Shown here: positions 740 to 6,559 of the stretch, piece after piece
How the letters are laid out: each line of letters starts with the position of its first letter
Numbering within the stretch: the first letter of the stretch is position 1
Virus record (IMG/VR): IMGVR_UViG_2695420763_000004
Strand: one strand, 5' to 3'
DNA from: a virus
Taxonomy: Duplodnaviria; Heunggongvirae; Uroviricota; Caudoviricetes
DNA length: 7,164 bases
Made by a program: the position numbers and the translations under genes
The notes under the pieces: generated by a model
Told to the model about the DNA's origin: nothing
Database searches by the model: none
What the model saw: the letters and a program-made list of their open reading frames with translations, nothing else

Positions 740-3700
740 TCAACGAATACTGATGCCGGAAGCCGCTTTTTTGGTCACAATCACCGTACAGTCGGTGATA
801 TTGCCTGCCCCCTGATTGCCTTTCTGGAAAATCTTAAACTCCAGAGTGACGCTACCACCACCACTAGGCATATCAATAACTGCACTGTAACTACCGGGAA
901 TGGCCCCTTTAGTTTCTCTGGATGCGATTAATACGCCGTTTTTGCGAACTTCAAAACCATAACCCGTGTATCGCGTGCCTCCTGGGTTATTTCCGCTCCC
1001 CGGATCGTCATACGCTATACCGTTAAAAATAATGGGCGGAATAATAATCTGGCGGTCAAAGTTATGATCATCGCTGATGGTGACTGTAACCGTCCCGTTT
1101 GGTGTTTCCGTGTTACCCCACGTACCGACTTTTTTCGGGAAGGCTTTTGATACAGCTTTAACGAAATCCCCTCTGACCTGGGTCGCCTCCAGCATGCCCT
1201 TAATCGTACAGTTCTGGTTAATCGTGACATTGTTGAGCGTTCCTGAGTTCGCATTCACACTACCACTGATATCCGCATTTTTAGCGGTCAGCTTTCCGTC
1301 TGATGTCAGGGAAAATACCGGAGGACTGCCACCGCTGGTAATGGTGGGGGCCGTCAGGCGCTTCAGGAACACGTCGTTCATGAATATCTGATTGCCCTGC
1401 GCCACAAACATCGGCGTTTCATTCCCGTTTGCCGGGTCAATAAATGCGATACGGTTAGCGGCAACCAGAAACTGACTCAGTTTGCCTTCCTCCGTGTCCT
1501 CCATGCTGAGGCCAATACCCGCGACATAATGTTTGCCGTCTTTGGTCTGCTCAATTTTGACAGCCCACATGGCATTCCATTTATCGTTGGCATCCTTCCA
1601 CTCTTTCGAAAACTCCTCCAGTCTGCTGGCGTTATCCTCCGTCAGCTCGACTTTTTCCAGCAGCTCCTTGCCGAGATGGGATTCGGTTATCTTGCCTTTG
1701 AAAAAATCCAGGTAACCTTCCGCATCATCGCTCGCCCGACCGACGGCCTCCACGAATGCCGATTTGCCAACGGTGTTCACACTGCGGATATAAAAGTAAT
1801 AATCATGGCCCGGTTTGATATTGATACTGGCGGCTATCCAGTACAGCGCCGTACCAAGATAGCGGGCTGTGGTTTCAACCTGCCTGATATCCGCAATCCG
1901 CTTTTCCGAGAACCAGAACTCAAACTGTACCGTCGGATCATAAACCGCAAGATGCGGCGTGGCGGTTATCTGAAAATAGCCCGGCGTCAGCTCAATCCGA
2001 GACGGCGCTGCCGGTGCGGCAATCCGGAACGATACCGATGCCGGATCGCCCTGCTGTCCCCACGCATTTACCGCCCGGACTGTCAGCCTGTAGTTCCCCA
2101 GCGCCAGTTGCGTGAAGCGGTATGTGGTTTCCGCCGTCCGGGCCGTGCTGACCAGCCGCTCACTGCCGTCATCCGCTGCCACGGTCAGGCGAAGCAGGAA
2201 GCTCACGCCCTTCACCACCTTCGGCGTGTCCCAGCGGGCCAGTACCTGATACTCCCCGCTGTCTGCGGTGACTTCGGCAGTCAGGTGCTGCACCGCTGGC
2301 GGCGTGACACCATTCACCGTGCCGCTCTGGTCGCCGTCAAAGTGCGCCCCGTTATCCACGATGGCTTCTTTTTCCGGTACATGCTGCACGGCAGTGATGG
2401 CATACGTGCCGTCATCGTTCTCACGGATACTCACACAACGGAACAGGCGCTGGCGCAACGTCGGCAACTTCAGCCCCCATACGCTGTATCCGGCAACGCC
2501 GTCAGGAACACGGCTCACTTTTACCTTCACGCCGTCGGTGACGGACTGGACCTCCACGCTGACCGGATTGCCACTTCCGTCAACCAGGCTTATCAGCGTG
2601 GTACCGGAGGATGGCAGCGTGATTTCACGGTCGAGCGTCAGCGTCCGGGTCTGGCTGTTCACCGCCAGCACGCGCCCGCCGGTGCTGATACCGGCATAGT
2701 CATCATCGCAGATTTCAATGACATCGCCCGGTACATGGCGAAGCCCTTCCGCACCCACGCTGAAGTCCACGGTCTGCGTTTCCAGCAGCTCCGTTTTAAT
2801 CAGCCACAGCCCGGCTCGGTGTGCCTGCCCCCGGCTGGTACAGCCAAAGGCATCCATCTTCGTGACGTTACGACCGTAACGGGCAATGGCCTGCGTGTCC
2901 TCCACAAGCTCTGTCGCCGTCTCCCAGCCGTTATCCGGGTCAATCCAGTTCACCTCAACGGCATTATGGCGGTCCTTGAGGGCGCTGAAGCTGTAGCGGA
3001 ACGGCGCGCCATCATCCGGCATCACCACATTACTGCGGTTATAGGTCCACACCTTATCCGACGGTCGGTCCTGCACGAACGTCAGCGTCTGCCCGTTCCA
3101 TACCGGCATACAGCGCATCGCCGAGCAGAAATCACTGAGCACATCCCACGCCTTGCGCTGTGTGGTCAGGTACGCATTACAGGTGATGCGCGGCTCCGTG
3201 CCGCCAAAGCCGTCCGGCACTGACTGGTCGCAGTACTGGCCGATGATATACAGCGCCCATTTATCCACATCCGCCGCACCAAGACGTTTTCCCATGCCGT
3301 AGCGCGGGTGGGTCAGCATATCCCACAGACACCAGGCCATGTTGTTGCTGTATGCCGGTTTTAACGTTCCATCCCAGATACCACTGTATTGCCGCGTCTG
3401 CGGGTTATAGTTCGACGGCACCTGCAGAATGCGCCCGCGAAGATGATAATTACGGCTCACCTGCTGGCTGCCGAACTGCTCCGAGTCCACCTGCACGCCG
3501 ACCAGTGCCGTGTTCGGGTAGCACTGTTTCACATCGATGATTTCGGTGTATGACGACCAGAGCGTTTTGTTCTGCAGCTGGTCTGTGGTGCTGTCCGGCG
3601 TCATCCTGCGCATCCGGATATTAAACGGGCGCGGCGGCAGGTTATCCACCACCACCGAGGCCAGATACTGCGAGGTGGTTTTGCCCTTAATGGTGATGTC

Positions 3701-4153
3701 TTTTTCCGTCACCCAGCCACCGTTACGTTGTATCTGAACCAGCAGGCGGACTTCCGATGGATTCCGGTCCCCCTTTGAGGTGGTTTCCACCAGTGCCTGC
3801 ACGCCGAAAGTAAAACGCAGACGGTCAATGTTTGCCGACGTGATGGTCCGGGTGATCGGCGTGTCATATTTCACTTCTGTACCGAGCACCGTCTCGGAGC
3901 CGGAGGATTCAAATCCCTCCGGCGGTGTCTGCTCCTGCTCACCGGCCCGGAACACCACCGTGACGCCGGATATATTGGTATTCCCCTCACTGTCCAGCAC
4001 CGGCGTACTGTTCAGCAGCACGCTTTTTAATCCATCCACCGGACCTTCAACCGGCCCTTCGCTGATGGCATCGATCACACTCAGCAGCTGCGTGGACTTC
4101 AGGTTGTCCTTCGCTTCGCGCGGGGTATGCCCCTTACTGCTGCCTTTACCCAT
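740..4153 (-). CDS. J: Central tail fibre / host specificity protein J (tail tip attachment protein)
   Basis: 1137-aa ORF. From the N-terminus [34 protein letters not shown]... through roughly residue 960 it is near-identical to my recollection of lambda gpJ (1132 aa). The last ~160 residues are related but clearly diverged. GGAG Shine-Dalgarno (plus 4162-4165) lies 8 nt upstream of the ATG (4151-4153). Position between I and lom matches lambda. Confidence 0.95.
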
Positions 4154-4213: not shown

Positions 4214-4885
4214 TCAGCGACCAATCACCACAACCTGACCACCATCCCCTTCGTCTGCCGTGCTGATCTCCTGAGAGACCACCCGCGACCCCACGCGCAT
4301 TTCACCGTACAGAACGGGCAGAACATTGCCCTGGGCAACCATGTTATCCAGTGACGAGAAATACGTGTTCTGTTTGCCGTTATCTGTACTGGCTGCCGTG
4401 GGCGTCCTGGCTTTCGGTGCCAGCATCTGCGCCACACCACCGAGCACCATACTGGCACCGAGAGAAAACAGGATGCCGGTCATACCACCGGCCCCAATGG
4501 CTGCCCCCCATGCTGCAAGGGTGGCTCCGGCGGTAAAGAATGATCCGGCAATGGCGGCAGCCCCCAGGACAATCTGGAATACGCCACCTGACTTGGCCCC
4601 GGCGACTCTGGGAACAATATGAATCACAGCGCCATCAGGCAGAGTCTCATGTAACTGCGCCGTTAACCCGGACGTGCTGACGTCCCGCCCGGCAATCCGT
4701 ACCTGATACCAGCCGTCGCTCAGTTTCTGACGAAACGCCGGGAGCTGTGTGGCCAGTGCCCGGATGGCTTCAGCCCCCGTTTTCACACGAAGGTCGATGC
4801 GGCGACCAAATCGTTGTAAATCCCCGTAAAGGCAGATGCGCGCCATGCCCGGTGACGCCAGAGGGAGTGTGTGCGTCGCTGCCAT
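4214..4885 (-). CDS. I: Tail tip assembly protein I
   Basis: 223-aa ORF MAATHTLPLASPGMARICLYGDLQRFGRRIDLRVKTGAEAIRALATQLP..., matching lambda gpI (223 aa) from memory. The start overlaps the 3' end of K by 103 bp in a different frame, as in lambda. Tandem stops TGATGA at the 3' end. Confidence 0.93.
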   Translation of the reverse strand: MAATHTLPLASPGMARICLYGDLQRFGRRIDLRVKTGAEAIRALATQLPAFRQKLSDGWYQVRIAGRDVSTSGLTAQLHETLPDGAVIHIVPRVAGAKSGGVFQIVLGAAAIAGSFFTAGATLAAWGAAIGAGGMTGILFSLGASMVLGGVAQMLAPKARTPTAASTDNGKQNTYFSSLDNMVAQGNVLPVLYGEMRVGSRVVSQEISTADEGDGGQVVVIGR

Positions 4886-5526
4886 TTGTCGGTGTACCTC
4901 TCTCGTTTGCTCAGTTGTTCAGGAATATGGTGCAGCAGCTCGCCGTCGCCGCAGTAAATTGCGGCGTGATTCGGCACTGATGAACCAAAACAGCACAGCA
5001 GCACATCGCCCGGCTGTGCCGCTGACAACGGCACCTGATACAGCCCCGTCGCCTCCAGATTATCCAGATAGAGATTCTGACCGTGACGCCACCAGTCATC
5101 CTCACGATAAAAGTCCGGCATCTCAATCCCCGCCAGATGATAAGCATCCCGGAACAGTGTGTAACAGTCCGTCACACCGTGCTCAAAGCGCCGCCCGGTG
5201 AGATGCGGCACACAGCGGAACTTATGAATCGTCCCCCGGCAGACCAGCCACCACGGCAAATCACTCTGCACCTGCAGCCGCCGGTCGGCCTCACTCAGCC
5301 AGGGCAGACCACCGGGGTGGCTGTGGACCAGCGCCACAATCTCACCCTGCATTTCTGCCTGCAGCCAGTCTTCCGGCGACATACGGAAATACGCCTCCGG
5401 CTCACCGGAGATATTCACGCAGGGAAAATATCTTTCCCCCTCCGGCGTGCTTACCACGAAGCCGCACGACTCCGCTGGCGCACATCGCCGGGCGTGCGCC
5501 AGAATCGCTGATTCTGTCTGTGTCAT
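4783..5526 (-). CDS. K: Tail tip assembly protein K (JAMM/MPN metallopeptidase-like plus NlpC/P60-like domains); long 247-aa form, classical 199-aa start would be at 5382
   Basis: 247-aa ORF MTQTESAILAHARRC... The ATG at 5524-5526 is 5 nt downstream of the L stop. The classical lambda K annotation (199 aa) corresponds to the in-frame Met49 (codon 5380-5382), which is preceded by GGAGG at a 13-nt spacing. JAMM-like motif HSHPGGLPWLSEAD (H68, H70, S78, D81). A DCYT cysteine (C121) and downstream His residues are consistent with an NlpC/P60 papain-like fold. Confidence 0.9.
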   Translation of the reverse strand: MTQTESAILAHARRCAPAESCGFVVSTPEGERYFPCVNISGEPEAYFRMSPEDWLQAEMQGEIVALVHSHPGGLPWLSEADRRLQVQSDLPWWLVCRGTIHKFRCVPHLTGRRFEHGVTDCYTLFRDAYHLAGIEMPDFYREDDWWRHGQNLYLDNLEATGLYQVPLSAAQPGDVLLCCFGSSVPNHAAIYCGDGELLHHIPEQLSKRERYTDKWQRRTHSLWRHRAWRASAFTGIYNDLVAASTFV

Positions 5527-5531
5527 GGGAT

Positions 5532-6230
5532 TTACTGCGAAAGTTTGTTAATGGAAAGGAAGCCGCCAAAGTTGCCGACGTTATTGCGGAACTTACAACC
5601 GCTCAGGCATTTGCTGCATTTATCCTTCGTGATATCGGACGTTGGCTGGTCATATTCATCCGCGACAGCCGGACCGCTATAACCGCACTCGTCACCGCGA
5701 TAGGTCCAGGTGCAGGTGTTGGCCAGCATGATACGTCCCGGAAAAACAGCGCCATCCGTTTCCGTCGGCGTGGACAGTACAAAGGAGGCACTCACCGCGC
5801 TCAGTTCGCTGCACTGCTCAATGCGCCAGCGGCTGATCACCTCCTGCTCCGGATCGGCGTAACTGTTTCCGTTGACGAAGTTCACCGCATCCAGAAAACG
5901 GGCGTAAACCTTACGCCGGACCACCGCTCCGCCGACCAGACTCTGCATATCTTCCGCCATCCCGGTGACCATACCGTACAGGTTAGAAACCGTCAGCGTG
6001 GGGCGCGTACTGGTGCCTTTGCCATTCAGTTCAAAACCGCTCCCCTGAATGGGATACGGCTGATACTGTCGCCCCTGCCAGGTGACCGGCTCACCTTTTT
6101 CGTTCTGCTCATTACAGAAAAAATAACGTTCTCCACCGACCTCTGTCAGGTCGATTTCCCAGAGCACCACGCTGGCCGACTGCTCCGCACGGGTGCATTC
6201 ATTCAGTGTTTCCTGCCGGATATCCTGCAT
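5532..6230 (-). CDS. L: Tail tip assembly protein L
   Basis: 232-aa ORF MQDIRQETLNECTRAEQSASVVLWEIDLTEVGGERYFFCNEQNEKGEPVTWQGRQYQPYP..., matching lambda gpL (232 aa) from memory. Its start codon shares one nucleotide with the M stop (ATGA-type overlap). C-terminal Cys cluster C-x8-C ... C-x2-C-x3-C. Confidence 0.95.
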   Translation of the reverse strand: MQDIRQETLNECTRAEQSASVVLWEIDLTEVGGERYFFCNEQNEKGEPVTWQGRQYQPYPIQGSGFELNGKGTSTRPTLTVSNLYGMVTGMAEDMQSLVGGAVVRRKVYARFLDAVNFVNGNSYADPEQEVISRWRIEQCSELSAVSASFVLSTPTETDGAVFPGRIMLANTCTWTYRGDECGYSGPAVADEYDQPTSDITKDKCSKCLSGCKFRNNVGNFGGFLSINKLSQ

Positions 6231-6559
6231 CAGTTCACCACCTGTTCAAACTCTGCGCTGAACTCAACACGCAACATACTGACCCGCGACGACCATTTTG
6301 CGCAGGTCACCTTTATCTGCCGCCACTCATAAGGCGGCGTCCACAGAAAGGATTTCCAGCCCCCGTGCTCTTCCAGAAACGACTCCAGTACCGTGGCCTC
6401 CTCACGGGGGACAGAAAGCGTCACGCTGTACGTTTTCAGGTTGGCATTCAGCCCGGCAGGCGCTCGCTGAGAATAGCCATCACCAAAGCGCACCTTTCTT
6501 ACAGAAGGGACCGAAGCCACATCCATACCGGGTTTCACTTTCCAGCGGAAGGTCTTCAT
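6230..6559 (-). CDS. M: Tail tip assembly protein M
   Basis: 109-aa ORF MKTFRWKVKPGMDVASVPSVRKVRFGDGYSQRAPAGLNANLKTYSVTLSVPREEATVLESFLEEHGGWKSFLWTPPYEW..., matching lambda gpM (109 aa) from memory. Its start overlaps the H stop by 4 bp. Confidence 0.95.
   Translation of the reverse strand: MKTFRWKVKPGMDVASVPSVRKVRFGDGYSQRAPAGLNANLKTYSVTLSVPREEATVLESFLEEHGGWKSFLWTPPYEWRQIKVTCAKWSSRVSMLRVEFSAEFEQVVN

Follow-up and report, generated by a model that had tools for sequence, protein, structure and literature searches.

Introduction

The product of gene K of phage lambda is deposited as a protein of 199 residues (AAA96551, NP_040598; TIPK_LAMBD in UniProt), whose JAMM motif was listed in 2004 from the 199-residue entry (PMC300881) and whose peptidase domain was placed by a 2020 review at 'residues 52-182 out of 199' (PMC7291167). 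TAPK, the family to which K belongs, was described in 2006 by Iyer, Burroughs and Aravind as combining a JAB and an NlpC/P60 domain and was linked to the ubiquitin-like protein TAPI, with the prediction that the JAB domain of TAPK cuts TAPI at the C-terminal glycine of its ubiquitin-like domain and so sets that domain free; some phages carry versions of TAPK with NlpC/P60 only (PMC1779556). Here, gene K was analysed in a stretch of 7,164 nucleotides from the IMG/VR virus record IMGVR_UViG_2695420763_000004 (Caudoviricetes), hereafter the window, in which the gene is 48 codons longer than in the classical annotation. A reading of the window made earlier from its letters alone (the original prediction) had proposed that these codons complete a metalloprotease domain. 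The evidence presented below makes it very probable that K is a 247-residue protein with two peptidase domains, started 5 nt after gene L, and that the 199-residue form is an annotation artefact of a G omitted from the lambda reference sequence.

K of the window and deposited lambda gpK are the same gene in the same position between L and I, and residues 49–247 of the former differ from the latter by H140Y and N148H. Because the reference omits one G, deposited gpK lacks residues 1–48, and with them E19 and some 40% of the JAB domain. No difference was found from the TAPK proteins of 2006, with which the two domains and the L-K-I-J neighbourhood are shared; as expected of TAPK, K follows the gene for minor tail protein L and precedes those for the ubiquitin-like tail assembly protein I and for J. 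Nor does anything substantive distinguish it from the 247-residue K called by PGAP (WP_000194779.1 in E. coli O157:H7; XSB40720.1 in lambda PV340536), which has the same coding sequence (CDS) length and starts 5 nt after L, under product names ('C40 family peptidase' or 'phage tail protein') that hide the JAB domain. With the archaeal JAMM1/desampylase enzymes (PfJAMM1, 5LD9/5LDA; HvJAMM1) K has in common the MPN+ fold and the E...HxH...S..D zinc site, and the cleavage of ubiquitin-like SAMPs by archaeal JAMM1 parallels the reaction predicted for K on I. Identity to these enzymes is, however, 20–24%, and K is fused to NlpC/P60, belongs to phage tail assembly and has an activity that is predicted only. 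The NlpC/P60 endopeptidases MepS/Spr, LytE and CwlO match K in their papain-like fold and Cys-His-His spacing (H187-x11-H199), but no signal peptide or wall-binding domains were seen in K in these analyses. The long K and its two-domain architecture are already known in substance: K is a typical TAPK member and represents no new system or biology, and the 199-residue K is a legacy annotation error worth correcting.

The reading frame of gene K

Gene K and the elements around its two candidate starts lie in the window as follows.

4783–5526, minus strand: gene K, a 744-nt CDS of 247 amino acids (aa) plus stop, ~28.3 kDa, present in the list of open reading frames (ORFs)
5524–5526, minus strand: ATG start of the long form, present in 80/80 related IMG/VR loci; distant homologs align from query residue ~4–10
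5527–5534, minus strand: stop codon TAA of gene L (5534–5532) and 5-nt spacer ATCCC, with no Shine-Dalgarno sequence
5383–5526, minus strand: N-terminal 48 codons absent from the classical annotation; helix 3–15 and strands 21–27 and 30–36 of the MPN fold
5380–5398, minus strand: context of the classical start, with GGAGG (5398–5394, inside E-P-E-A codons), 11 nt, and the Met49 ATG (5382–5380)
5392, minus strand: G not present in J02459/NC_001416, where it would follow reference position 14266; 10 nt ahead of the Met49 codon

The K frame open to an ATG 5 nt after the L stop, as originally predicted, agreed in its coordinates with the ORF list and the sequence, and Met49 was confirmed there as the classical start. 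The GGAGG announced before Met49 was also found, although not at the predicted distance of 13 nt: the true spacing is 11 nt in the window and 10 nt in the lambda reference. The N-terminal residues specific to the long form (1–48), which include MTQTESAILAHAR..., carry Glu at positions 5, 19, 29 and 31. They are identical between the window and full-length lambda K, the two proteins differing in two residues (the H140Y and N148H changes given above).

An open stretch of 48 codons has a chance probability of ~0.14 at this base composition. Openness was therefore dropped as evidence for coding, and the significance of the extension rests on homology. When 1.84 billion representatives were searched exhaustively with phmmer, 2,763 homologs were obtained, and the full-length distant ones (35–60% identity, 230–260 aa) aligned with K from its residue ~4–10, corresponding to their own residues ~3–15. 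When 36 distant homologs, 32–58% identical to K, were aligned with it (alignment A2, 37 sequences), residues G22, N38, H68, H70, D81, R112, D120, D174, H187, H199 and S206 were invariant, and P17, E19, C21, F47, S69, C121 and H200 were conserved in at least 90% of the sequences. The most conserved N-terminal motif of the family, P17-x-E19-x-C21-G22, thus falls in the extension, as does N38, and the position of Met49 is occupied by Ile in most distant homologs.

Close relatives were collected with the K protein as query, yielding 80 IMG/VR loci with 69 unique K sequences of 96–100% identity. The ATG and the open frame were kept in all 80 loci. Variable sites among the 69 unique sequences were distributed over first, second and third codon positions as 6/2/18 in codons 1–48 and as 19/19/65 in the remainder of the gene. 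Both parts of K bear, on this count, the same third-position-biased coding signature, and the extension is, as judged from sequence comparison, real coding sequence.

Two peptidase domains

The domains and catalytic residues of the long form map to the following positions.

5215–5520, minus strand: JAB/MPN (Prok-JAB) metalloprotease domain, residues 3–104 (PF14464, 52.3 bits)
5470–5472, minus strand: codon of E19, the predicted JAMM catalytic glutamate (P-x-E-x-C-G motif), at least 90% conserved and aligned to the Glu of PfJAMM1, 2kks and 2kcq
5284–5325, minus strand: JAMM zinc motif H68-S69-H70-x7-S78-x2-D81, with H68, H70 and D81 invariant and S69 at least 90% conserved
4855–5196, minus strand: NlpC/P60 (C40) cysteine-peptidase domain, residues 111–224 (PF00877, 48.3 bits)
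5166–5164, 4968–4966 and 4932–4930, minus strand: predicted triad C121, H187 and H199

The contribution of the extension to the first domain was apparent in profile comparisons with Pfam Prok-JAB (PF14464; profile length 114, cut-off 25 bits). The 247-aa form scored 52.3 bits over profile positions 3–112, whereas the 199-aa form scored 23.3 bits, under the cut-off, and covered positions 63–112 only; the 48-residue extension alone reached 23.4 bits over positions 3–41. Similarity to the NCBIfam desampylase spanned residues 3–103 of the long form and was gone in the 199-aa form. Sequence and profile searches of the PDB matched the JAB domains 2kks, 2kcq and PfJAMM1 (5ld9/5lda) from K residue 2–16 onward, and E19 was aligned with the catalytic-Glu motifs 'PNEACG' of 2kks, 'PEEGCG' of 2kcq and 'vEVCG' of PfJAMM1. 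A JAMM motif takes the form E-x(n)-H-S/T-H-x7-S-x2-D (Ambroggio et al., PMC300881), and long K contains each of its elements (E19, H68-S69-H70, S78 and D81). The signature starting at residue 68 had been recognized in the original prediction, which also expected the upstream glutamate in the extension and left a choice between E5, E19, E29 and E31; the alignments with solved JAMM structures point to E19.

Structural models gave a similar picture. An AlphaFold2 model of the 247-aa K, built with an alignment, had a predicted local distance difference test score (pLDDT) of 96.1 and a predicted template-modelling score (pTM) of 0.91; residues 1–48 were modelled at pLDDT >=95 as the helix and two strands listed above. 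In Foldseek comparisons of this model with the PDB, PfJAMM1 5ld9_A was matched with E 7e-5, a template-modelling score (TMt) of 0.66 and a root-mean-square deviation (rmsd) of 2.6 Å, the PfJAMM1 matches overall having TMt 0.66–0.69 and rmsd 2.5–2.6 Å; further JAMM matches were CSN5, Rpn11 and AMSH. The 199-aa form was also modelled with a confident fold (pLDDT 95.6), but all 23 of its 23 significant Foldseek hits were NlpC/P60 proteins, and no significant JAMM match to it was found in the PDB (best 7l97_A, E=0.067). Since the short model loses all significant JAMM matches, the MPN fold is incomplete without residues 1–48. A complete MPN fold without these residues, which the original prediction had named as the observation that would speak against it, was looked for by modelling and not seen, and its expectation that the short form lacks part of the metalloprotease fold was borne out by profile scores and models alike. 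On the evidence of profiles and models, the extension completes the JAB/MPN domain, which is complete in the long form only. By profile, motif and fold, long K is assigned to JAB/MPN+, and zinc binding and (iso)peptidase activity are predicted for it.

The NlpC/P60-like character of the C-terminal half, likewise anticipated, is independent of the start chosen, with scores of 48–49 bits in both forms against a PF00877 cut-off of 23 bits. The match (48.3 bits) covers the whole profile (1–105 of 105). A Cys-His-His triad is present: among the 37 sequences C121 is at least 90% conserved, and H187, H199 and D120 are invariant. Foldseek matches of the K models to NlpC/P60 proteins included MepS, Spr and LytE. 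K consists of two peptidase domains, a complete MPN+ domain at ~1–105 (E19, H68, H70, S78, D81) and an NlpC/P60 domain at ~110–225 (C121, H187, H199). The original prediction was correct in this, and the architecture had been in print since 2006 (PMC1779556).

A G missing from the lambda reference

Alignment of the window with J02459, lambda imm21 and HK630 revealed one difference that matters, the G at position 5392. The reference reads GGAGGC-TATTTCC at this place, and all other aligned sequences read GGAGGCGTATTTCC. Because of the single G absent after position 14266 the long frame is broken in the reference: in J02459, the ATG behind L leads into a frameshifted ORF of 76 aa, and the K frame is not open until Met49 (199 aa). 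The annotation of a 199-aa K can be traced to this split, since annotators took the next in-frame ATG, Met49.

The distribution of both versions was examined with short exact sequences. A 50-mer without the G was found in four phage records (J02459, NC_001416, OR474059 and OR974322) and in none of the 5,426 E. coli genomes, whereas exact matches to the 51-mer containing the G numbered 38 among phage records and at least 2,123 among E. coli records. NC_001416 is the RefSeq copy of J02459; OR474059.1, an UNVERIFIED engineered strain, is 100% identical to the reference over the first 24.5 kb, and OR974322.1, recorded as having been isolated from chicken cloacal swabs, differs from it at 6 positions. 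Being almost identical to J02459, the latter two look derived from the reference rather than independently assembled. The G-less sequence is restricted to the reference and these two nearly identical records.

By contrast, the G is present in LC730321, KT232076, PV340536, the imm21 and imm434 hybrids, DE3 and lambda-gt10. A commercial supplier's sequence notes for lambda cI857 Sam7 reportedly list an inserted G at 14266 as well. Between J02459 and the independently sequenced lambda LC730321 (Lambda_AGU, 48,503 bp) there are 15 differences, among them a deletion of G138 and the additional G after 14266 in LC730321, and the variants tabulated for the lambda-gt10 transgene of MutaMouse include '137 AG>A' and '14266 C>CG' (PMC6760142 Table 5). 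The most economical reading is an omission in the 1982 reference; a private mutation carried by the phage stock of that time is a less economical but formally possible source of the difference.

Two other differences between these sequences were noted. The G138 deletion is common to LC730321 and lambda-gt10 (PMC6760142) and is possibly a second reference error. LC730321 also has an additional C after 20832, at about the site where laboratory lambda is known to carry a frameshift in stf, and this points to an stf of the Ur-lambda type.

Initiation of K and alternative explanations

A start of K 5 nt after L matches the neighbouring junctions H/M and M/L, with their ATGA and 1-nt overlaps, and the classical start at Met49 would leave a gap of 148 nt between L and K. 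Among the 80 close relatives the spacer is 5 nt, or 4 nt in a minority. This anatomy, a short stop-start spacer with no independent Shine-Dalgarno sequence, fits termination-reinitiation, for which the layout had been considered suitable in the original prediction. Because no Shine-Dalgarno sequence lies upstream, K initiation in lambda-type phages is probably dependent on termination at L. The arrangement is confined to the lambda clade, and tight coupling as a family-wide feature was rejected: K of a Salmonella relative lies ~100 nt after L and has its own Shine-Dalgarno sequence (GGAG-7nt-GTG), and in an Edwardsiella relative a small gene stands between L and K, which is again preceded by its own GGGG. 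The K proteins of both relatives still begin 5–7 residues before the conserved I-L-x-H-A helix.

Several of these observations weigh against a coupled start of a 247-aa K. No GG occurs in the 24 nt upstream of the 5526 ATG, so that this start lacks a Shine-Dalgarno sequence of its own; the Salmonella and Edwardsiella loci do without coupling; the coupling of K to L, probable as it is, is inferred from spacing alone; and Met49 together with GGAGG is kept in 68 of the 69 unique close relatives. The last point, with GGAGG 11 nt ahead of an ATG and with the NlpC/P60-only TAPK versions of some phages (Iyer et al., PMC1779556), would suit a gene with two products, a 247-aa protein from the coupled start and a 199-aa NlpC/P60-only protein made by internal initiation at Met49 for a separate role. 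We regard such a pair of isoforms as improbable. Met49 is Ile in most distant homologs, and the conservation of GGAGG is accounted for by coding, because it sits in E-P-E-A codons. The usual optimum between a Shine-Dalgarno sequence and the start is, moreover, shorter than 11 nt, and the short product would hold half an MPN domain, unable to fold.

It is markedly less probable still that the classical annotation is right for lambda, which would then truly lack the G (positions 14,250–14,290 would read GGAGGCGTATTT) and make only the 199-aa K, the long ORF being a dispensable feature of its relatives. The 76-aa frameshifted ORF followed by a 199-aa ORF in J02459/NC_001416 is what this explanation expects, and two further records share the G-less sequence; those two, however, are not independent of the reference, the independent lambda sequences all carry the G, and the search of the 5,426 E. 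coli genomes returned no G-less copy. The reading that the 48 codons stay open merely fortuitously and are never translated, with the JAB-like motif after Met49 left as a degenerate remnant, can practically be dismissed. An open stretch of this length is unexceptional (P ~0.14) and its ATG has no Shine-Dalgarno sequence, yet the 48 residues match Prok-JAB on their own, contain residues invariant across homologs of 32–58% identity, vary mostly at third codon positions and are modelled at pLDDT >=95 as integral elements of the MPN domain. A non-coding extension is effectively refuted by the Prok-JAB match, the homolog alignments and the third-position bias.

Predicted function of K

Gene K shares the following stretch with gene I, whose product is its predicted substrate.

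4783–4885, minus strand: overlap between the 3' end of K and gene I in its classical extent (from ATG 4885)

In the proposed mechanism, ribosomes terminating at L would start K at ATG 5526–5524, the JAB domain of K would, while the tail tip is being assembled, cut gpI at the C-terminal glycine of its ubiquitin-like N-terminal domain and so release that domain, as foreseen for TAPK and TAPI in 2006 (PMC1779556), and K itself would not be retained in the virion. By mass spectrometry gpK is absent from virions (PMC10721106). A peptidoglycan-cutting role of K at infection is doubtful because of this absence, and the substrate may be a protein. In cryo-electron microscopy (cryo-EM), gpI was resolved only from residue 101 (PMC11101478) or 135 (PMC10721106); its sequence reads ...VAGAKSG100-G101-VFQ, and the Pfam ubiquitin-like domain ends at residue 97. 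The absence of gpK, the resolved range of gpI and the GG sequence are consistent with the predicted cleavage of gpI by K, and are no proof of it. The N-domain missing from the cryo-EM maps of gpI could reflect disorder, not cleavage, and since virions contain no gpK, their mass spectra say nothing about where K begins. The virion mass-spectrometry supplement, in which gpK is absent, reports gpI by one peptide (9.9% coverage) and is silent on gpI processing.

As a tentative and rather doubtful proposal, full-length K could be the long-sought tail-tip maturation protease, removing the ubiquitin-like N-domain of gpI at ~G96–G101; it might also process gpH to gpH*. If so, cleavage at ~G96–G101 would explain why cryo-EM shows gpI only from residue 101, and lambda would become a tractable bacterial-virus model of ubiquitin-like/JAMM processing. 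Work on the 199-aa ORF, including clones, interaction screens and structure predictions, would have used a protein without a functional JAB domain.

The start of gene I itself is called differently among records. PGAP and PV340536 place it at a GTG overlapping the K stop (GTGA), giving a protein of 190 aa that appears truncated: the Pfam profile PF06805 is covered over positions 26–83 by the 190-aa call, and over positions 2–83, from Met14, by the classical 223-aa I. An overlap of ~97–103 nt between K and I is also called in the Salmonella and Edwardsiella relatives. The true start of I is probably ATG 4885 or Met14 (ATG 4846); either would mean that I and the 3' end of K truly share a long dual-coding stretch.

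Gene K in records and literature

Sequence and annotation do not go together in the public records. HK630 and lambda imm21 carry the G and still copy the 199-aa start; the 744-nt/247-aa CDS is annotated by PGAP in E. coli genomes, in PV340536 (a lambda record of 2025) and in OQ243220. KT232076 has a 211-aa call from an in-frame GTG at V37, which was treated as another gene-caller artefact. The exact 247-aa protein of the window occurs on at least 1000 public contigs, under names such as 'C40 family peptidase' or 'Predicted metal-dependent protease of the PAD1/JAB1 superfamily', and the protein identical to full-length lambda K on 581 contigs.

An explicit published statement of the K frameshift, or of the consequence of the indel at 14266, was sought in the searchable literature library and none was found there, the only trace being the MutaMouse variant table; a protein interaction map paper, checked for K, held no usable statement. 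In the canonical records of lambda, the reference phage (J02459, NC_001416, TIPK_LAMBD), and in recent reviews K is still a 199-residue protein with a single peptidase domain, incapable of JAMM activity. Cloning, modelling or mutating K from the reference yields a truncated enzyme, which bears on any test of the 2006 prediction of gpI processing. The practical correction is to move the K start to 5 nt after L and to add a G after reference position 14266.

The surrounding locus

The window comes from the tail-tip region in a lambda-type phage and contains the following genes besides K.

To 6556, minus strand: end of gene H
6230–6559, minus strand: gene M
5532–6230, minus strand: gene L
4214–4885, minus strand: gene I
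740–4153, minus strand: gene J, 1137 aa
85–669, minus strand: gene lom

The order M-L-K-I-J is the same in the E. coli, Salmonella and Edwardsiella loci. The small gene between L and K in the Edwardsiella prophage (L093 1069–1398) encodes 109 aa with a weak zinc-ribbon Pfam match, and neither the window nor the Salmonella relative has it. K and its flanks are 99.8% identical in DNA to phage phiSTEC1575-Stx2k and 99.5% identical to lambda, HK630, DE3 and others. J has 1137 aa in the window and 1132 in lambda, and lom 194 aa compared with 206. Since the lengths of J and lom differ, while K, L and I are nearly identical to those of lambda, the window belongs to a lambdoid relative and not to lambda itself.

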